This document shows positions 33,456 through 43,140 of a stretch of 64,000 nt of DNA, one piece after another. Each line of letters opens with the position of its first letter. The first letter of the stretch is position 1. A program made the translations under genes and the position numbers. Below the pieces are notes generated by a model that saw only the letters and a list, made by a program, of their open reading frames with translations, made no database searches and was not told where the DNA came from. The stretch covers positions 64,001 through 128,000 of the forward strand of contig JAXMOL010000002.1 in NCBI GenBank assembly GCA_034669905.1, in the 5' to 3' direction. Origin of the DNA: Candidatus Hydrogenedentota bacterium. GTDB taxonomy: Bacteria; Hydrogenedentota; Hydrogenedentia; Hydrogenedentales; JAEUWI01.

Positions 33456-34223
33456 TTACCGAAAAACATGCTCCCGGTGATAAGCCACGTATTCGGGATC
33501 CGGCAGAAAGCGATGGGGAGCGACAATGGGCTTACCGGCGACCGCCTGTATGGCTTCCGCATCGTCACGCGGCAGCGCCATCACCTCTGACGACACCACC
33601 ACCCGAGACGCCTCATCCAACGTAATAAGACCCCGGTCAAAGGCCCGGTCGTGAAGGGCGTTGAGACAGAGCCCATTGCGCGGGTCCGTGCGCGCCTCAG
33701 GACGTGCAGCCCACGGAACAATATGACTCGCGTTCAACAGCGACGGCACAGCGAGGCCGGTAATGCAACACCGGCTGTGATAGGACTCCAAAACCATCCT
33801 GCGAAAGAATCCCTGATTAACCCGCTGCTTCACCAGCGCCTCCCGCGTGGCACCCTCCGGCACCACCACCGCCTCGTCAGGACACTCCGCAGTCACTGTC
33901 TCCTCTAACGACACCTTCAAGCGCGCCGCGAGAAGCCGTTCACTCTCAAAGACCATCCCATCCCAATCTGCGAAGAACTCTTCCCACACCGCACGGTCGA
34001 GCTTGCTGGCGTTTGTGGCACCCTTTCGCGCCAAGGCGGGGTCTATACTCGCCAAGTTTGCGAGCTTATAACTCACCGAGCCGGGCGTTCGCCCAAGAAG
34101 CTCTGCCAACGCGATTATCTTGGGATTGCGGTAGTGAATACTCCCGAAGGAAATCTTACAGTAGAGGTTCATCGCGAGGATGAGTTCCTCACGCGTCCAT
34201 GCTCTGCCCCGTGCTGCGCTCAT
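33456..34223 (-). CDS. HNH endonuclease (putative restriction nuclease)
   Basis: RVNQGFFR, CCITG, ASHIVPW and NGLCLNALHDRAFDRG motifs. Confidence 0.9.
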   Translation of the reverse strand: MSAARGRAWTREELILAMNLYCKISFGSIHYRNPKIIALAELLGRTPGSVSYKLANLASIDPALARKGATNASKLDRAVWEEFFADWDGMVFESERLLAARLKVSLEETVTAECPDEAVVVPEGATREALVKQRVNQGFFRRMVLESYHSRCCITGLAVPSLLNASHIVPWAARPEARTDPRNGLCLNALHDRAFDRGLITLDEASRVVVSSEVMALPRDDAEAIQAVAGKPIVAPHRFLPDPEYVAYHREHVFR

Positions 34224-34555
34224 GCAAACTCCATCATTCGCGCCATCACGCGTCGGGTGCTCCAACGCGCCTTCCCTGCCAAAACAAAACGCGCTAGAAA
34301 CTCGCTCGCCGTTAGTTCAACCGTAGGCGAATCCTTCACAGGGCACACCGCTACAATTTCATGCCAAACATGGTCGCATTCGCGGTAGGGCAGCTCTTGC
34401 AAATCTTCCAGCCCAACCTCGGACGGCACGAAGAAATCTCCCTCGTAAAAGTGCTCTTGGAGTTGCTCTAACGTGACCTCCCCTTTGAGCACTACTTCAT
34501 TAAAAAGCTTGTAGTTGCCCCCGTCTCGGTACATATACTCGATGTGTGTATTCAC
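34220..34555 (-). CDS. Hypothetical protein (YxYRDxxNYK ... DHxWHE)
   Basis: 111-aa ORF with a 4-bp overlap onto the HNH start; GGGAG RBS. Confidence 0.7.
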   Translation of the reverse strand: MNTHIEYMYRDGGNYKLFNEVVLKGEVTLEQLQEHFYEGDFFVPSEVGLEDLQELPYRECDHVWHEIVAVCPVKDSPTVELTASEFLARFVLAGKARWSTRRVMARMMEFA

Positions 34556-35224
34556 TAGTCGCTCCCGGTTGCGCCGGACATCGCGGTCGTCTCTTGCTCA
34601 ACGTATTCCTAATACACTATCTCAAACAAACAGCCCTCTTGAATTCTTGGCATGCTTTCTATCAGGGTCCATCCCACTTCCATTCTCAGACATTTGATTG
34701 CCAATTATGCAGTAAAGTAAATTGATTCCACTTAACTTAGCACATTATTCTAGCTTGCAAACAAGCACGACATTATGTGCCAATAAACATCAGATTAGGA
34801 TTTACCAATGAGTGACCAATCCGACGAGAGTGAGTTGGAAATAGAGGACGAGAATGATGAACCCGAAGCCCGAGTCAACTATGAAATCGCGACGTACCCG
34901 TCCGATTTTACACTTTCTGGCATCGCCCAGATGTGGAAGGACGGTGATATTGACATCCCGGACTTCCAGAGAGAGTTTGTTTGGTCCATTAAACAGTCTT
35001 CGCTGCTGATTGACTCATTCTTGTGCGGCCTCCCGGTACCGCCCGTATTTTTTTATATTGATGAGAAAAATAAGAATCTTGTCATTGATGGTCAGCAAAG
35101 AATTCTTAGTATAGTCTTCTACATCTCTGAGGGTTACTTTGGCAAAGAAAGCACACATGGAAAGAGAAGTGGACCCCATAGTTTGGACACGTGATCGTGT
35201 TTCTTAAGTGTATCCGCTTTGGGG

Positions 35225-36052
35225 TTATGCCGATGCCTTTGCTTCGGCGCTGATTGATTGGTAGTAGAAGGTATCTGGAGTCATCTTTTCAAGGGCCTGG
35301 TGTTTTCTCCTATGGTTGTAGAATTCCATCCACTGTCGGATGCGTTGTCGGGCGTGGGGAATACTTTCGTAAGCGTTAAGGTAGACCTCCTCATACTTCA
35401 GGCTCCGCCAAAGGCGTTCGATGAATACGTTGTCGACCCAGCGTCCTTTTCCGTCCATGCTGATTTGTACCCCGGCGTCTTTGAGCACTTGGGTGAAGGC
35501 TTCGCTGGTGAACTGGCAGCCCTGGTCCGTGTTGAAGATCTCCGGGGTGCCGTATTTGTGTAGTGCTTCATGGAGTGCCGCCACGCAGAAGTCCGTATCT
35601 AGCGTGTTGGAGAGTCGCCAACTGAGAACCTTTCTGCTGTGCCAGTCCATGATGGCGACCAGGTATATGAAGCCCTTGCGCATAGGGATGTAGGTTATGT
35701 CTGAACACCAGACGTGATTGGCGTGATCGATGTTCAGGTTGCGAAGCAGATAAGGATACACCTTGTGGGCGTGATTGGCACGACTCGTATTGGGCCTTGG
35801 GTACAGGGTCCTCATACCCATTCGGCGCATGAGTCGCTGTACCTTCTTCCGGTTGATGACATAGCCCTCCTCGGCGAGTTCGTCCACGATACGGCGGCTA
35901 CCATAGCACGGCAAACGAAGATGAATCTTGTCCATCGCAGCCATGAGCATCTCGTCGTAGGACCGGTCCACCGTCGGCTGATAGTAGGCGGAGGAACGGG
36001 GCACCGACAACAGGGCACATCGTCGATTCAGGGGTAATTTGTGGGCCTTCAT
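35225..36052 (-). CDS. IS3 transposase OrfB (DDE)
   Basis: YGSRR, WCSDITY, NTDQGCQF and DNVFIERLWRSLKYE motifs; in the -1 frame relative to orfA, with a slippery TTTTTTA at 36100-36106. Confidence 0.93.
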   Translation of the reverse strand: MKAHKLPLNRRCALLSVPRSSAYYQPTVDRSYDEMLMAAMDKIHLRLPCYGSRRIVDELAEEGYVINRKKVQRLMRRMGMRTLYPRPNTSRANHAHKVYPYLLRNLNIDHANHVWCSDITYIPMRKGFIYLVAIMDWHSRKVLSWRLSNTLDTDFCVAALHEALHKYGTPEIFNTDQGCQFTSEAFTQVLKDAGVQISMDGKGRWVDNVFIERLWRSLKYEEVYLNAYESIPHARQRIRQWMEFYNHRRKHQALEKMTPDTFYYQSISAEAKASA

Positions 36053-36078
36053 AACGATTTCTTTGCGCTGCGCCCGGT

Positions 36079-36360
36079 CTAACGACCGAGCGCTTTGGCT
36101 AAAAAATCGTTTTCAAGCGTCAGCTGTCCAATCTTGGCGTGGAGCTTTTCCGTGTCGGCCTCGTTCAACCGACGGGTGTCCTCCGTCGAGCCAAAGACAC
36201 CAACCGCTTGCTCAGAAAGCTGCTGTTTCCACTGCTTCACCTGGTTCGGGTGGACATCGAAGCGTTCCGCCAACTCCGCCAAGGTCCCTTCCTCAGACAA
36301 AGCCGCCAGGGCCACTTTTGCTTTAAATGCCGGCGCATGATTCCGTCGTTTACGTCGCAT
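36079..36360 (-). CDS. IS3 transposase OrfA (HTH)
   Basis: [45 protein letters not shown]. Confidence 0.92.
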
Positions 36361-37174
36361 AGTTCTATCTCCTTGCTTCAAAGAATACGTCAGGAGATAC
36401 ACTTAACGCACTGTCCAGTTTTCGGGGTCCACTTCTAAGAGACAGGTTTTCCGACTAACCGGACTCGGAGACAACAGCCCGTATGACAAGAAGACCTTCA
36501 AGGAACTCAGTGAATCCGACCAAAGAAAACTAAAGCATTCAGTACTCCGCGCAGTAAATATAAGGCAACTCAATCCCGTTGGAGAGAGCACTAGCATATA
36601 CCACATATTTGAGCGCCTAAACACCGGCGGAATACCTCTTAAACCTCAGGAAATACGAAACTGTGTGTTTAGGGGAGAGCTATGTCAATTCCTAAAAGCC
36701 GCGAACACTGATCCCAATTGGAGAAAGCTCATAGGCCGAAAGCACTTGGACAAGCACCAACGTGATGTCGAATTTGTTCTCCGAGTTCTTGCCCTTACTA
36801 GCTCCTCGGGCGAGTACGAGAAGCCGATGAAGGAATTTCTCAATAGTGAAATGAGTAAGAATATTACAGGGAAGTCGCAAAGTGTTCGAAGATTCTTCAA
36901 AGCATTTCCAACAATTACACGAACTCTTGCAAATCAACTCGGCGAAAAGCCTTTTCATATACGCGGCCCGCTTAATATTTCCGTATTAGATTCCGTCATG
37001 GCTGTTCTATTGGAGCACCCTCAGAAAACAAACAAACTAAAAGGCTTGAAAGAAAAATACGAAAGCTTGATCAATGATGCAGAGTTCCTCGAGGCAGCAA
37101 CTGTAAATACAACTGACACAAAAACTGTAAATACTCGTCTAGGAATCGTCCGAAGGGCGTTGCTCGGTGATTGA

Positions 37175-37681
37175 ATGTCATACTCGGACCATTTTAAGCA
37201 TGCGGATGATATAATCACACATTGGAAGACAACAGTCCCTAAGATTTCCGACGATTTGCTGAAAACTAAATATGTCGGTTTTTCTGCTATTGCTGGGGTA
37301 ACCGTATACGAGTTGGCGATTAAGCAAATCCTTACTGAATTTGCCGCTCGCAAACACAAGGTCCTTGGCAATTATGCGGGGAGTCACTTGACCCGCATGA
37401 ATGGAAAGATAAAAATATGTGACCTACGGAAAGACTTTGTACGCAAATTTGGGGACATATATGCCAATAGGTTTGATCGTATCTTGAAGGAAAAACAACG
37501 GCTGTACCTTATTGCCCAAAAGAGAGACTTCAGAAACTCCTACGCCAATATGATTAATTGGCGAAACTCCTTTGCCCACGAAGGTAACACTAATGCGACT
37601 GCTACATTCCAAGAAGTTGTCAGTGCATACGAAGATGGCAAACAGGTAATTCACTGCCTCGCTAAGACAATGACCAGATAA
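37175..37681 (+). CDS. HEPN-domain protein (putative RNase)
   Basis: Rx4H motif RNSFAH; upstream conserved Glu helix (VTVYE); starts immediately after the DUF262 stop. Confidence 0.8.
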   Translation: MSYSDHFKHADDIITHWKTTVPKISDDLLKTKYVGFSAIAGVTVYELAIKQILTEFAARKHKVLGNYAGSHLTRMNGKIKICDLRKDFVRKFGDIYANRFDRILKEKQRLYLIAQKRDFRNSYANMINWRNSFAHEGNTNATATFQEVVSAYEDGKQVIHCLAKTMTR

Positions 37682-37918
37682 GGATACAAACGCGGCCCTC
37701 TGTCACTATCGAACTACTCCCCAAGACCGCCAGGTCCGGCAAAGAGGTCAATAATCGGAATTTTTTCGGACATGCGATAGATCTTTTCCAGGTAATAGCT
37801 TTCGAAGGAGCCCGATTATGCTACGCAACCGCCCCTGCCGCTAGGTTATGCGCCGCTCAAACCCGTCGTGTGGCATCCAGTGGTGTTAAAGAGATGTCGC
37901 CGAGCGATTGGCGCCGCG

Positions 37919-38058
37919 TTTTTGTGGGACGAGTGGGACGGTCGAATAGTGAATGATGAATTGAGAATAGTGAATTGACTGTCTCGTCTTTCGGTGCCAC
38001 ATCATCTGAACGACACAGGTCCCACAGGTCCCACAGGTCCCACAGGTCCCACAGGTCC
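37919..38058. repeat. 9-mer/7-mer repeat hairpin downstream of the four-helix-bundle suffix gene
   Basis: GTGGGAC-GA-GTGGGAC, GAAT heptamers at 37944-37976, and five perfect CACAGGTCC copies at 38014-38058 in inverted orientation. Confidence 0.85.
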
Positions 38059-38081
38059 TACAGAATCGGGTGAGCCCTGCT

Positions 38082-38660
38082 TTAATCCTCGTCGTGCCGT
38101 CGTCCCTTTTGCCCATCCCGAATTGCGAGGCGGGCCCTGGTCATGCGTTCGCGGAGGCCGCCGTGCTCGAGGAATTCTTTTTCGAGATGGCGTAGCTGTC
38201 GGTTGAGCAGGTAGGTGGTCTGGTGAATCAGACAAATCACAATATTTGCCACCGTCTCGGGCGGGCGGGTGGTGAGGAAGGGTTCGAAGGTGGCGTAGGT
38301 CACGCCCTCGCCTTGGCTCAGGCGGCGCACGTAGCGCGCTTCTTTGCTTTCCTTGTCCCAGAGGTCCCCGTCGTGGGTGCGCAGGTAGTCGAGGTAGTCG
38401 GCGAGGAGCTCTTCCAGGCTGGCGCGGGCGACGTTGGTCAGCTTGATTTCCATTTCCTTGGAGGTGCCGGCCGCCTGGCTGCCTTCGATGATGTTCTGCT
38501 TTCCCGAGCGCGCCGCCTGGACCATCTGGTCATAGGTGCGGTCCCGTTTGCTCAGAAATCGCCGACAGAAACAGACGGTGGCGTCGTAGACGATTTCTGA
38601 CTTCTGGTAGGAAAGGAGGTGGGCGTAGCCGCCGTGTTTTGGTATGAAGCCCTCGCTCAT
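38082..38660 (-). CDS. Four-helix-bundle protein with suffix domain (TIGR02436/TIGR04258-like)
   Basis: GGY..LLSYQKS, DQMVQAARSGKQNIIEG, LTNVARASLEELL.DY and GGLRERMT motifs. Confidence 0.88.
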   Translation of the reverse strand: MSEGFIPKHGGYAHLLSYQKSEIVYDATVCFCRRFLSKRDRTYDQMVQAARSGKQNIIEGSQAAGTSKEMEIKLTNVARASLEELLADYLDYLRTHDGDLWDKESKEARYVRRLSQGEGVTYATFEPFLTTRPPETVANIVICLIHQTTYLLNRQLRHLEKEFLEHGGLRERMTRARLAIRDGQKGRRHDED

Positions 38661-38734
38661 GATAACCGCCCCGCTATGCGTGTGTTGTGGTTTACTCCCT
38701 GGATGATGATAGAAACGCGGGGCGGGTTTCCAGT

Positions 38735-38977
38735 TTTTTGTGGGACGAGTGGGACTTGTGGGACCGGTGAGACAGCCGAAAAGAGAATTGATTGTCTCGT
38801 CGTGCGGCAGAGTCTTTCCGGAGTGAATTTAGAACCCCAGAAACTTTACTGGATTCCCGCATGCGCGGGAATGACAAATCGCCACCTCGAACGGGGTCGT
38901 GGGCCCGGTGAGCCTGCGTGGTCTACCTGACGTCGTCAGGCCGTCCCACAGGTCTCACCGGTCCCACTCGTCCCACA
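38735..38977. repeat. 9-mer inverted-repeat hairpin enclosing a REP-like palindrome
   Basis: tgtgggacgagtgggac..cggtgagac versus gtctcaccggtcccactcgtcccaca; CTGGATTCCCGCATGCGCGGGAATGAC at 38849-38875. Confidence 0.8.
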
Positions 38978-39006
38978 TAACTTCAAAAAGGACCCTCGGC
39001 CTTCAG

Positions 39007-39082
39007 CCTATTTCCATTTAATTTTCGCCACATACACCGAGTTATCCGAGCCATATTTCTCGATGCCCACGGGCTGCATCCA
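39007..39082 (-). repeat. Second copy of the last 76 bp of the sialidase-like gene
   Basis: Matches 39617-39692 at 70 of 76 positions; both copies encode WMQPVGIEKYGSDNSVYVAKIKWK*. Confidence 0.95.
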
Positions 39083-39619
39083 AGGGAGTACTGAATGATG
39101 AATTGAGAATAGTGAATTAATAGGACAAACTCACTTTTCTCTTCCTACTGCGCAGCTATAGAGCGCCGTTCATAAACCTTGATTCTTTTTGGTTTTCATC
39201 ACAATTACGACGAGTATACTCACAATTTCGTTGGCTTCCGTGACCATATCCTGCAGCTGCTTTTCCGAGCACAGTTCCACCGCCTGCAACAGCCGCAACC
39301 AATAGAGCGTTTCGCGGGCCTCTTTCAGTGCTATCGCCATTTTCGAAATGAAATCGGCTCTGCTTTGGCCTCCCTGCGCCTCCTCCACATTGGCACCTAT
39401 AGAGGTCCCAGCGCGCAGCAACTGGTTCGCCAAAGTCCGGGAGACACCTGGATTCTTGTCGAGAAACTGCGCCAACCTCACGACCCGGACCGCGAAGTTA
39501 AATGTCCGAGCGGTAATGTGCTCCTGAACCGCCAACTTGTCAGCCCTTCGCTATCTTTGAAACTGCGCCGCTCATTTCACAAAAATTCACTATTCTAAAT
39601 TCGCTATTCTCTACTCCCT
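39083..39619. mobile_element. Putative inverted-repeat-bounded four-helix-bundle cassette
   Basis: Arms 39083-39118 and 39584-39619 align without gaps as an inverted repeat: AGGGAGTA plus four nnGAATn heptamers. Confidence 0.55.
39170..39535 (-). CDS. Four-helix-bundle protein (TIGR02436 / 23S rRNA IVP / Avd-like fold)
   Basis: RTFNFAVRVV, QLLRAGTSIGANVEEA and SRADFISKMAIALKEARETLYWL motifs; TTG start. Confidence 0.92.
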   Translation of the reverse strand: MAVQEHITARTFNFAVRVVRLAQFLDKNPGVSRTLANQLLRAGTSIGANVEEAQGGQSRADFISKMAIALKEARETLYWLRLLQAVELCSEKQLQDMVTEANEIVSILVVIVMKTKKNQGL

Positions 39620-40787
39620 ATTTCCATTTGATCTTGGCCACATACACCGAATTATCCGAGCCGTATTTTTCGATGCCCACGGGCTGCATCCATTCGGCGA
39701 CGCTGACCCAGGTTTCGTTGTCGCTCACTTTGGTGACGGCGAAGTTACCGAGGCGGGCGCCGCGTTCGGGGACGAGGATGCGTTCGGTGCTGCGGATGAC
39801 TTGCAGCGTGTCGGGGTTGACCTGGGCCATGAAGAGGGGTGCGCGGTGACGGAAGACGTGGTCGTTGTTGGCACCACGGCGGGTGTAGACCAGGAAGAGG
39901 CCGTCGGGGTGGGTGACCCAGTGTTGCTGGGTGTTGTAGGAGCCCAGCTCTTCGCCGTCGTCGAAGGTCCAGGGCTTGGCTTCGTCGAAGTGGAGGCCGT
40001 CGCTACCGCTGGTGACGTAGCCCTTCACATCGTTGCGGAGGGTGAGGAAAAAGCGGCCCTTGTATTCGGCGAGGGAGGGCTCGGGAAAGCCGCGTTCCAC
40101 GGGCACGGTGTGCATGCTGCCGTGCTCGACGTAGGAGAGGGTGTCGCCGTCAAAGCGGGCGCGCACCACGGTGGCGCTGTATTGCTTGGTGTCTTTCCCC
40201 TTGAAATAAATGGGCAGCAGGATGTCGCCATTGGGCAGGTCGACGCGCTGGGTGCAACCGGCGCCGTTGTTGAAGAAGTAGGGCTCGTCGGGCATCTCCA
40301 TGTTCTTCCACGTGGACCAGGTGCGGGCTTCGGGATTGTAGACCGAATAGGCGGTCGTCCGGGCCCGGTTGGTGTGGATGAGCTTGTTGTCCTTGTTGTA
40401 CATGGCGGTGTGGCCCGTGCCCAGGAGCTTGCCGGTGGCGGCGTGCCACTTGGGGGTGAAGTCACAGATGACCGCCGTGCCGCCGTCACCATAGGGGATG
40501 CGCCCGAGGTTTTCGTGCTCGGTGGGTCCGCTCCAGGTCTTGCCACCGTCGTCGGTCCGCATTTCGTTGAGGGCGTAGAAAATATCCGAGCCACTCAGGA
40601 GGAGCTTCTGCATGGTGAGCACCACCGTGGGCGTTTCCCCCGGGATGGTCCCCGCACGGGGATGGACCCAGCAGGTTTCTTTGTCGAATCCCGAGCTGAT
40701 GGTCTGTAAATCGATATCGTAATCGACGGCGGTTACGGGCAGTAGTCCGATAGTCAAAGCCAATGCCGTTATATAGCGTGTAATCAT
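39618..40787 (-). CDS. Exported sialidase/BNR-family beta-propeller protein
   Basis: Signal peptide; Asp-box-like TDDGGKTWS and SDGLHF motifs. Confidence 0.7.
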   Translation of the reverse strand: MITRYITALALTIGLLPVTAVDYDIDLQTISSGFDKETCWVHPRAGTIPGETPTVVLTMQKLLLSGSDIFYALNEMRTDDGGKTWSGPTEHENLGRIPYGDGGTAVICDFTPKWHAATGKLLGTGHTAMYNKDNKLIHTNRARTTAYSVYNPEARTWSTWKNMEMPDEPYFFNNGAGCTQRVDLPNGDILLPIYFKGKDTKQYSATVVRARFDGDTLSYVEHGSMHTVPVERGFPEPSLAEYKGRFFLTLRNDVKGYVTSGSDGLHFDEAKPWTFDDGEELGSYNTQQHWVTHPDGLFLVYTRRGANNDHVFRHRAPLFMAQVNPDTLQVIRSTERILVPERGARLGNFAVTKVSDNETWVSVAEWMQPVGIEKYGSDNSVYVAKIKWK

Positions 40788-40964
40788 GTCTTCTCCTTCA
40801 GCGTTTGCGCTGTTGTCCTTTACGTCCTTGAGGTCGTTTGTGTCTTTTTTAAACTAGTCGCTCGCCTTCGGCGTTGCCGCAGTAGCGGCAAGGCAGGTAT
40901 TCCTACGGGGGACCGTAGGAACAAGGCATTTCGGTTATGCCGGCGGGCCGCCGGCGCTCCATAG

Positions 40965-41013
40965 AATTCCCAATTCTAAATTCTAAATTCACTATTCAAA
41001 ATTCACCATTCTA
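40965..41013. repeat. Heptamer tandem repeat (nATTCnn x7) directly after the PQQ dehydrogenase stop
   Basis: aattccc-aattcta-aattcta-aattcac-tattcaa-aattcac-cattcta. Confidence 0.8.
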
Positions 41014-41019
41014 ACTTCT

Positions 41020-43140
41020 TCACTTCTCAATTCGAAACGCGACGTACGCATCGCCTTCGTCGGTGCCCATCTTGCCGCCGGCGGCAGCGGTCACGACGTA
41101 CTGCACGCCGTCGACCATATAGGTGGCGGGTGTGGCGTAGCCCCCGGCGGGGAGTTTGGTTTCCCACAGGAGCTTGCCGGATTTTTTGTCATAGGCGTGG
41201 AACATCTCGTCTTTCGTGGCGCCGATGAAAATTACACCACCCTTGGTCACGAGGGGGCCGCCGTAGTTTTCGGTGCCCGTTTGTTCGTGGCCTTCTTCAC
41301 GGAGGCGGGGCGTATCGCCGAGCACGGACTTCCACACGATTTCGCCCGTGTTCATATCGATGGCATTGAGGGTGCCCCAGGGCGGCTTGATGGCGGGATA
41401 GCCCAGGTGATCGACGAAGCGGTTCCAGCCCGTGTGGCGGAAGATGGGCTTCTTATCGGCGTCCGGTTTTTCGTCGTCCGCTTTTTCATCATGGGCGGTA
41501 TCGGCCGCGTAAATATAGTCGAGGATATTCTTCATACCCTGCTCCCCCAGGTTTTTGAAGGAAGGCATGAAGCCCTTGCCCGCGAGCATGAGGGCTTCGG
41601 CATCTTCCCGCTTGAGGCGCTCGCTGATGCCCTTGAGGGGCGGGTACATGCTGAAGGGATTCCCCTCGCGCTCGACGCCATGGCAGAAGAGACACTGCTT
41701 CGCATAAATCATGGCCCCTTCACGGAGGGCCGGGTCACTGCCGAGCTGATTGATATCCACCATGGTGAGAATCCACGGCATCTCGCTGGCGTTGATGTAG
41801 AGCAGGCCCGTCTCGGGGTCCACGGCCGCACCGCCCCATTCTCCGCCGCCATCGTAACCGGGAAAGACGAGGGTGCCTTCACGACTCGGCGGGGCGAAGC
41901 GCTCGCGACGGATGACCTCCCACCGTTTCATCACCATCTCGCGCGACTCGGGAGTAATGTCGGTGATGTCGTTAAAATCGAAGGTGCTGCGCGAAAAAGG
42001 TTCCGGCTTGGTGGGCACGGGTTGGGTCTTAGCGGCCAGCTCGCCCTCCAGGTCAGAGGCGGGCGCGGGCACTTCTTCAATCGGGAAAAGGGGCTCGCCG
42101 GTTTCACGATCGAAGAGGAAGACGAGGGCCGACTTGGTGATCTGTGCCACCGCATCGATCTTTTTCCCATCGTGCTCCACCGTGAGGAGGTTGGGCGGCG
42201 CGGGGAGATCGCGATCCCACAGGTCGTGGTGCACGGTCTGGAAATGCCACTTCCGCTCGCCGGTCCCCGCGTCCAGCGCCAGCAGGGTGTTGGCGAAAAG
42301 GTTGTCGCCGTGGCGATCGCCGCCGTAGAAATCAAAGGCCGCTGCGCCCGTGGGCACATAGACAATGCCCCGCTCGGCATCAAGGCTCATACCCGCCCAC
42401 GAGTTGGCCCCACCGGTAAACTCATGGGTGCCTTCCGGCCAGGTGTCATAGCCGAATTCGCCCGGCTGGGGAATGGTGTGAAAGGTCCACGCGATCGCGC
42501 CGGTGTGCACGTTGTAGGCCCGGATGTGCCCCGGTGCCGCGGGATGGGATTCCATGGTACGCAGGCCGATGATGTAAAGGTCTTGGTAGACCACGCCGGG
42601 GGACGAGGACTCGGCATAGATTTTTTCCGGGTCACGGCCGAGTCCTTCCGACAGCCGCACCTTTCCGCCGTCACCAAAGCCCTCCACCGGCTTCCCCGTG
42701 TCGGGGTCCAGGGCATACAGAAAGGGGCCGCCGCCATAGAGCAGGCGACGCTGGGTACCATCGGTCCACCAGCCAAAGCCGCGGCAGACCGACTTCTTCG
42801 GCTCATCGGCCGTAAAGGTCCATTTTTCCTCGCCCGTGGCGGCGTTGAGGGCGAAGACCTTCATAAAGGGGGACACGCCGTAAAGCACCCCGTCGATAAC
42901 GAGGGGGTTACATTGAATCTGACCCACCTTCTTCTCGTCGGCCCCTTCACTCGAATAGCGCCACGCGACGGAGAGCTTCGAAACGTTCTCCGTGTTGATT
43001 TGATCCAAGGTCGAGTATTGACCGCTGTCCGCCCCACCGAGATAGGCGCTCCAGTTGCGGTCCTGTGCGGTGGCCTGCGCGCCCGCCAGGAGCGCCGTGA
43101 GGCCCAGGGCCATCAGTTGGTGTTTCGCATGTTGCTTCAT
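41020..43140 (-). CDS. PQQ-dependent glucose/quinate-type dehydrogenase with an inserted cytochrome c domain
   Basis: Signal peptide; YSTLDQIN, WHFQTVHHDLWD, GGGEWGG, CLFCH and PPWGTL motifs. Confidence 0.88.
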   Translation of the reverse strand: MKQHAKHQLMALGLTALLAGAQATAQDRNWSAYLGGADSGQYSTLDQINTENVSKLSVAWRYSSEGADEKKVGQIQCNPLVIDGVLYGVSPFMKVFALNAATGEEKWTFTADEPKKSVCRGFGWWTDGTQRRLLYGGGPFLYALDPDTGKPVEGFGDGGKVRLSEGLGRDPEKIYAESSSPGVVYQDLYIIGLRTMESHPAAPGHIRAYNVHTGAIAWTFHTIPQPGEFGYDTWPEGTHEFTGGANSWAGMSLDAERGIVYVPTGAAAFDFYGGDRHGDNLFANTLLALDAGTGERKWHFQTVHHDLWDRDLPAPPNLLTVEHDGKKIDAVAQITKSALVFLFDRETGEPLFPIEEVPAPASDLEGELAAKTQPVPTKPEPFSRSTFDFNDITDITPESREMVMKRWEVIRRERFAPPSREGTLVFPGYDGGGEWGGAAVDPETGLLYINASEMPWILTMVDINQLGSDPALREGAMIYAKQCLFCHGVEREGNPFSMYPPLKGISERLKREDAEALMLAGKGFMPSFKNLGEQGMKNILDYIYAADTAHDEKADDEKPDADKKPIFRHTGWNRFVDHLGYPAIKPPWGTLNAIDMNTGEIVWKSVLGDTPRLREEGHEQTGTENYGGPLVTKGGVIFIGATKDEMFHAYDKKSGKLLWETKLPAGGYATPATYMVDGVQYVVTAAAGGKMGTDEGDAYVAFRIEK

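Follow-up and report, generated by a model that had tools for sequence, protein, structure and literature searches.

The locus studied here lies in a 64,000-nt stretch of DNA (hereafter the window; positions 64,001 to 128,000 of contig JAXMOL010000002.1) from the Candidatus Hydrogenedentota genome GCA_034669905.1. Its host gene (39618..40787, minus strand) encodes a protein of 389 aa that had no sequence match in Pfam, NCBIfam or PDB. The ESM Atlas neighbours of this protein at 0.97–0.98 are named BNR-repeat/sialidase, and PF13088 is found on 18%–24% of the top-cluster members; it is thus probably a BNR-repeat sialidase-like protein. The 3' end of the gene is present twice, as 76-nt direct repeats spaced 610 nt apart and 92% identical. 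The first copy (39617..39692, minus strand) is the working end of the gene, comprising 24 codons, TAG and 1 nt, and the second (39007..39082, minus strand), hereafter the orphan, encodes the same 24 residues and stop (WMQPVGIEKYGSDNSVYVAKIKWK-stop in both). Their likeness ends at the very first base on both sides, and the repeat matched the rest of the genome at no place other than these two. The six mismatches (GAG/GAA, TAT/TAC, AAC/AAT, GCG/GCC, AAA/AAG and ATT/ATC) are all synonymous and lie downstream of the first 23 nt, which are free of mismatches.

The 534 bp between the copies have a GC content of 49% (genome, 59%) and contain a single gene-like ORF (39170..39535, minus strand), encoding a 121-aa four-helix-bundle protein of TIGR02436 (E 5e-28) and PF05635 (E 5e-23) that also matched PDB 2rld (E 8e-25). 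This gene is single-copy in the genome, and its near relatives are in records titled Candidatus Hydrogenedentota. It is enclosed by an inverted repeat of 36 nt (83% complementary), whose left arm (39584..39619, minus strand), built of 7-nt units, begins at the A of the host stop codon, and whose right arm (39083..39118, minus strand) ends at the base before the orphan, which it abuts. Both arms were identified by repeat search and folding, and their terminal stem was present in the minimum-energy and centroid folds; the 581-nt stretch as a whole folded no better than shuffled sequences (z −0.99, 12/100). No Rfam match was found at E ≤ 1 across 37600–41200, and of three weak promoter-like sites in a promoter and terminator scan (0.7 ± 0.9 in shuffles), none was usable. 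The repeats, their spacing, the six synonymous mismatches and the identical upstream 23 bp given in a preliminary description of this DNA were all confirmed by alignment, as was its account of a sole four-helix-bundle gene within an inverted repeat that is flush at both borders.

On the far side of the orphan lies an older cassette (37919..38980, minus strand), delimited by its repeats, family matches and comparison with the related genome G007, with which it is shared. It carries a second four-helix-bundle gene with a TIGR04258 suffix (38082–38660) between 9-nt and 7-nt repeat arms, and its arm at 37944–37976 is 94% identical to 33 nt of the right arm of the 610-bp unit. On the other side of the host gene, a repeat search found a lone left heptamer arm (40965..41024, minus strand), at a site where G007, G006 and the metagenome contig L061 have another four-helix-bundle gene (proteins 76%–79% identical). 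This spacer 5' of the sialidase-like gene held a four-helix-bundle cassette in three relatives compared (L002, L005 and L061), whereas in the window it holds the lone arm and a palindromic repeat only; the first ~30 codons of the host gene differ as well, which suggests a second recombination tract. All six four-helix-bundle genes of this genome lie among short-unit repeat arms, with 7- or 9-nt units that differ per cassette, and in 18 called genes a heptamer arm lies no more than 45 nt from the stop codon. The left arm often begins at the upstream stop codon itself (e.g., C14:124200-124800, C52:17600-18250, C97 and C12).

Further along the window, a GmrSD/DUF262-type gene interrupted by an IS3-type element (35225–36402) is followed by a RiboL-PSP-HEPN gene (34808–37681 in all). 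Both halves of the interrupted gene match PADLOC NsnA and PD-T4-2_A, and the two genes are a probable defence pair disrupted by the insertion sequence. A stub of 19 codons followed by a stop (MSEKIPIIDLFAGPGGLGE; 37714–37773, minus strand) lies beyond the stacked cassettes; it resembles the start of a cytosine methyltransferase gene and may be a stranded 5' end. A small gene without a Pfam family (34220–34555, minus strand) has a similar ORF downstream of the sialidase-like gene in G006, at a short distance, and in G005, at a longer one, which suggests that the intervening 5 kb in the window is a variable array. A further gene (33456–34265, minus strand) encodes an HNH endonuclease resembling phosphorothioate-DNA-binding restriction enzymes (NF045808, below the cut-off).

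Comparison with relatives clarified the nature of the 610-bp unit. In G007, whose host protein is 97% identical to that in the window, the DNA immediately after the stop codon is that found beyond the orphan in the window, with 97% identity on both sides, and the four-helix-bundle gene was not found in this 94% complete genome. Given this contiguous empty site, of the kind that the preliminary description had proposed to look for, the 610-bp unit is evidently an insertion. The left junction, from gene to arm, was also present in the metagenome contigs L061 and L062, which both end 103 nt after the stop and may not be mutually independent. The right junction, from arm to orphan, was seen in this assembly only, and its motif had no match in viral contigs.

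For these codons and a transition bias of 1 to 10, the chance that six of six random substitutions are silent is 5e-5 to 4e-4. The silent-only pattern is therefore improbable by chance, as the preliminary description had argued, although its figure of (1/3)^6 was larger than this codon-based range. The gene body likewise differs between this genome and G007 at 23 of 315 codons, 22 of them silently. An ordinary allele in G004 differs from the working end at nine of 24 codons, all silent, and contains two of the four codons private to the orphan (TAT and AAC; both comparisons read by eye). The silent differences are thus evidently ordinary divergence between alleles, and the earlier term "recoded" overstates them. 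The single end in G007 matches the working copy at four of the six mismatch sites and the orphan at two; it differs from the former at three of 24 codons and from the latter at five (P ~0.03 for five or more at the divergence of the gene body). This closer likeness to the working copy implies that it was the orphan that came in, or else that G007 has secondarily lost the unit.

The same gene has an independent orphan in G005, where the gene is followed by an ORF-less heptamer hairpin, the orphan, a DUF1016 gene and a second short orphan. The first orphan shows 10 differences in 22 codons, all 10 of them silent, and encodes the residues of G005 itself; it has three mismatches in its first 12 nt, and the second orphan begins 28–30 nt before the stop. 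Together with the six of six silent differences in the window, this supports the earlier view that both ends derive from coding alleles and not from a decayed target duplication. The G005 hairpin folded better than shuffled sequences (z −3.0, 0/200), and its orphan begins 2–3 nt from the stem base, compared with 0 nt in the window. Three of the four orphans of this gene (window, G005 first and L074) start within ~6 nt of one another. That of L074 has decayed (five silent and eight replacement differences; L003 was left out of such counts, its rows being out of register). L124 is the donor-like counterpart of L074, having cargo and no orphan, and this nearest donor-like pair is too diverged to resolve a microhomology of 3–10 bp at an illegitimate junction. 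Overall, four of 106 sialidase-family loci with the stop in view (flanks of 0.05–3 kb) had a downstream orphan.

A paralogous gene provided more examples. It was accompanied by orphans in five of the eight genomes fetched, including the single-contig genome G008, where four of the eight loci had been picked because a second match was already known; the orphans start 30, 78, 135, 213 and 253 nt before the end. In G003 and G006, the orphan (frameshifted in the latter) precedes the neighbour or cassette that other genomes have behind the working gene; the old ends thus appear to have been pushed downstream. The earlier proposal that an incoming end displaced the old one thus finds support at the paralog, whereas at the present locus G007 is compatible with either direction. 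In G004, the paralog is followed by toxin-antitoxin-like cargo without an orphan, which is a donor-like arrangement. Furthermore, this genome and G007 have in common the cargo, the right junction and the first ~14–20 nt of the orphan, whereas the orphans are 98% (this genome) and 72% (G007) like the respective genome's own gene and lead into different genes. Such a common cargo and junction with differing orphans and flanks points to a crossover at the orphan start, most simply one in which its opening bases recombined with the working end of another allele.

How common such stranded gene ends are was surveyed among the called genes of at least 100 aa in this genome. The 92 raw matches were reduced to 12 rows by three filters (host of at least 190 aa, copy of at least 45 nt and not a full paralog). 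These correspond to ~10 loci among 4,942 called genes, as two pairs of rows represent one locus each. Summed over the 12 rows, 43 differences were silent and 33 were replacements; the corresponding counts were 25 and 4 for a post hoc choice of the five least decayed loci, and 18 and 24 for four of the loci. The loci on C24, C26, C28 and C41 were used by counts alone; that on C28 might be a paralog repeat, and that on C12 a tandem duplication. The repeats are 51–280 nt long, which argues against a fixed att length, and the cargo seen between gene and orphan included a Gp49/HTH toxin-antitoxin-like pair, an ankyrin protein and non-coding DNA. Gene starts gave ~2 clean mirror cases among 13 rows. 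At C54:20781-21730, a 280-bp duplication with 10 silent differences and one replacement spans the ends of two convergent genes around a 390-bp insert; such a duplication is more readily accounted for by a circle that recombined through a single crossover than by homology-facilitated illegitimate recombination (HFIR), which joins one homologous and one illegitimate end. G007 has an empty allele of this locus that is too diverged to tell which copy is native, and three other loci of this genome had only fragmentary or distant matches in five relatives.

In contrast to this variety of cargo, few four-helix-bundle genes were associated with a stranded host end. A profile-based survey yielded 135 distinct matches from this genus, its order and many phyla, of which 118 had sufficient flanking sequence; two of these 118 loci had such an end, namely the present locus and an hsdS-like array in G005 (L048). 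In the latter (G005:C446), an hsdS-like 3' end occurs four times (84 nt, 81%–93% alike), and its copies separate three units, two of them ORF-less remnants and one a whole four-helix-bundle gene with a suffix domain; the junction is 7 nt past the stop and not at a stem. The idea that the duplicated end is a footprint of how four-helix-bundle genes spread is therefore not supported: one of the two loci is the present one, and many other types of cargo carry the scar. The scar is evidently general and not tied to four-helix-bundle genes.

No enzyme that might have moved the unit was found nearby. Integrase, recombinase and transposase families were absent from 137 ORFs within 2.2 kb behind 87 related loci (the best one or two ORFs per locus, trimmed to 330 aa). 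A genome-wide scan for the tyrosine type gave nine matches, the nearest 127 kb away, and the IS3-type element 2.6 kb away lies inside another gene. The sole reverse transcriptase (RT) found in the genome is of the retron type (C70:9485-10531; best NCBIfam match retron St85, below the cut-off). The preliminary description was thus correct in that no integrase, transposase or RT is encoded in or next to the unit. comEC is present in the genome.

Taken together, these results suggest that the 610-bp unit is probably a hairpin-bounded cassette with a second gene end that was inserted through homologous recombination of the host with DNA from a related allele rather than by a self-encoded enzyme. 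A donor allele would have carried the cassette directly behind its stop codon without a duplication, as do the alleles in G004 and L124. A donor fragment ending at the hairpin base would then have been joined inside the recipient gene, leaving the gene whole and the end of one allele stranded, either through HFIR or through circularisation followed by a single crossover. Once present, the first bases of the orphan could act as a second homology arm, so that the cassette might be swapped with working alleles by double crossover irrespective of the downstream flank, and the orphan would continually be refreshed with coding sequence. The four-helix-bundle gene would be a passenger and the silent differences would reflect allele divergence. 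That the same scar flanks many unrelated passengers in this bacterium and its relatives and is rare at four-helix-bundle genes makes an ordinary scar of host recombination likely. Both routes have precedents in the available portions of the literature. In Escherichia coli, 56 of 60 clones acquired a gene-end duplication via a single crossover of degraded, recircularised DNA, the duplications being 109–950 bp in 14 sequenced clones (PMC3240628), and HFIR has been put forward to explain orphan 3' ends within T6SS and Rhs arrays (PMC5361080). HFIR is, however, rare in experiments and mostly gives deletions, according to the same portions of these reports (PMC3240628; PMC5361080).

Two features are not predicted by random joining, namely that the orphan begins at or within 2–3 nt of the stem base at both loci with a hairpin and that three of the four orphan starts cluster within ~6 nt; these keep a hairpin-directed break and a recombinase acting in trans in play. 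If the hairpin set the junction, a nuclease acting on single-stranded DNA or RNA would stop or cut at the stem base, and heptamer-armed cassettes would form their own right end and acquire the end of the upstream gene for use in targeting, a dedicated route of spread. Apart from the flush junctions in the window and next to the ORF-less hairpin of G005, such a route would be consistent with the duplication of two of the 18 arm-bearing gene ends of this genome (this one included), as against ~10 of 4,942 genes overall, and with the cleavage by RNase III of rRNA intervening sequence (IVS) stems that contain this ORF family, as stated in the part of PMC4990558 that was available. Nevertheless, we consider it unlikely, given that most orphans have no hairpin, that stranded ends were so rare among the four-helix-bundle loci, with the L048 junction away from any stem, and that among 30 heptamer-pattern loci only two had an orphan, both covering this site. 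The single RT, retron-like and on another contig, offers it no help either. A broader version, in which heptamer-armed four-helix-bundle cassettes are recombinase-free homing units that capture the upstream gene end at a hairpin-set break, use the stranded end as a homology arm and need only host RecA to enter any allele across species, is likewise doubtful. Somewhat harder to reconcile with the data is the leftover of an integrative element, in which a site-specific recombinase supplied in trans acted near W-M-Q-P, brought a replacement 3' end and left the 23 identical bases as an att core. The identical upstream bases do resemble attL/attR, the three clustered starts would fit a preferred site, and the genome has nine tyrosine-recombinase matches; however, the nearest of these is distant, no recombinase family was found behind the related loci, the first G005 orphan is mismatched at its very start while the second begins elsewhere, and the starts of the paralog orphans vary from 30 to 253 nt. 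We therefore regard a trans-acting recombinase as quite improbable here.

The remaining explanations are weaker still. The genome appears to be metagenome-assembled (102 contigs) and the right junction is known from this assembly alone, so that the gene ends of two strains might have been joined in one contig. Such an artefact is very improbable, because the arm and the part of the gene upstream of TGG have no sequence in common, so that an assembler would have needed a real path across the arm-to-orphan join; a false switch within the 23 identical nt would itself presuppose the duplication. Moreover, the left junction recurs in L061 and L062, the same design exists in G005 and in the single-contig G008, and contamination is estimated at 0.85%. 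The order of gene end, hairpin, Avd-like gene and copy resembles that of a diversity-generating retroelement (DGR), with the gene end as variable repeat, the four-helix-bundle protein as Avd and the orphan as template repeat. A DGR remnant was rejected as scarcely credible: only one of the six mismatches lies on a template adenine (four of 10 in G005), no residue is changed and no RT is linked, despite the resemblance of PF05635 to Avd noted in the portion of PMC10053308 that was available. Least credible of all is an orphan that is translated or often swapped in and so kept under protein-level selection as a switchable gene end. The absence of amino-acid changes among six and 10 differences and an in-frame ATG at the orphan's second codon would fit, but a switch between ends that encode the identical peptide changes nothing, the G005 orphan has no ATG, and older orphans decay, as in L074, the frameshifted G006 orphan and the four loci with 18 silent and 24 replacement differences.

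Insertion of the kind seen here belongs to a class that is already known. Some integrative elements regenerate the 3' end of the gene they target and displace the old end. They share with the present unit the replacement end, the displaced old end and serial stacking (G005, G006 and L048), but here the repeat lengths vary and integrases are absent from the unit, its surroundings and the DNA examined downstream of the 87 loci. The closest parallel is insertion with long target duplication, described for restriction-modification genes as recombinase-free, with repeats frequently extending over a start or stop site (PMC2853133). As in the portion of that account covered, the insert is <20 kb, the repeats are >30 bp, an empty site exists and no mobility gene is present; repeats across the stop codon keep the target intact, and the copies are not fully identical. 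The cargo here is a TIGR02436 cassette, which differs from the restriction-modification genes on which that screening was based, and the role given there to restriction cuts does not apply to a four-helix-bundle cargo. Neither an analysis of silent-site divergence nor a role as a homology arm occurs in that portion (PMC2853133). HFIR and recircularised single-crossover integration, in the parts of PMC3240628 and PMC5361080 available, likewise leave a whole gene, foreign DNA and a stranded end; the stranded tips there are variable toxin ends or laboratory constructs, whereas here the end is that of a conserved enzyme. The 23S rRNA IVS with an S23p/PF05635 ORF has the same family inside stem-forming terminal inverted repeats; the present cassette lies behind the stop codon of a protein gene, outside rRNA, and has a duplicated target end, which the accessible text on the IVS does not describe (PMC4990558). 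DGRs also place an Avd-like gene beside two near-identical repeats (PMC10053308, in part), whereas linked RT, adenine-specific change and amino-acid variation are all lacking here. No account of this arrangement around a four-helix-bundle gene, or of the homology-arm reading, came up in a literature search that covered few subscription papers, and four-helix-bundle proteins are not mentioned in the available part of a report on heptamer repeats (PMC4679880).

Taken by itself, the locus is a clear though unremarkable example and leaves the general spread of four-helix-bundle genes unexplained. Its wider interest lies in the fact that accessory genes at bacterial hotspots mostly have no adjacent recombinase, and how they are added, as opposed to swapped, has been poorly tested. 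The genus offers a small natural series in this respect, with donor-like alleles without duplication, filled and empty alleles, stacked orphans and one cassette common to two genomes with differing orphans. Should the orphan work as a homology arm that can be used repeatedly, a single illegitimate joining event would be enough to let any cargo spread by ordinary recombination.
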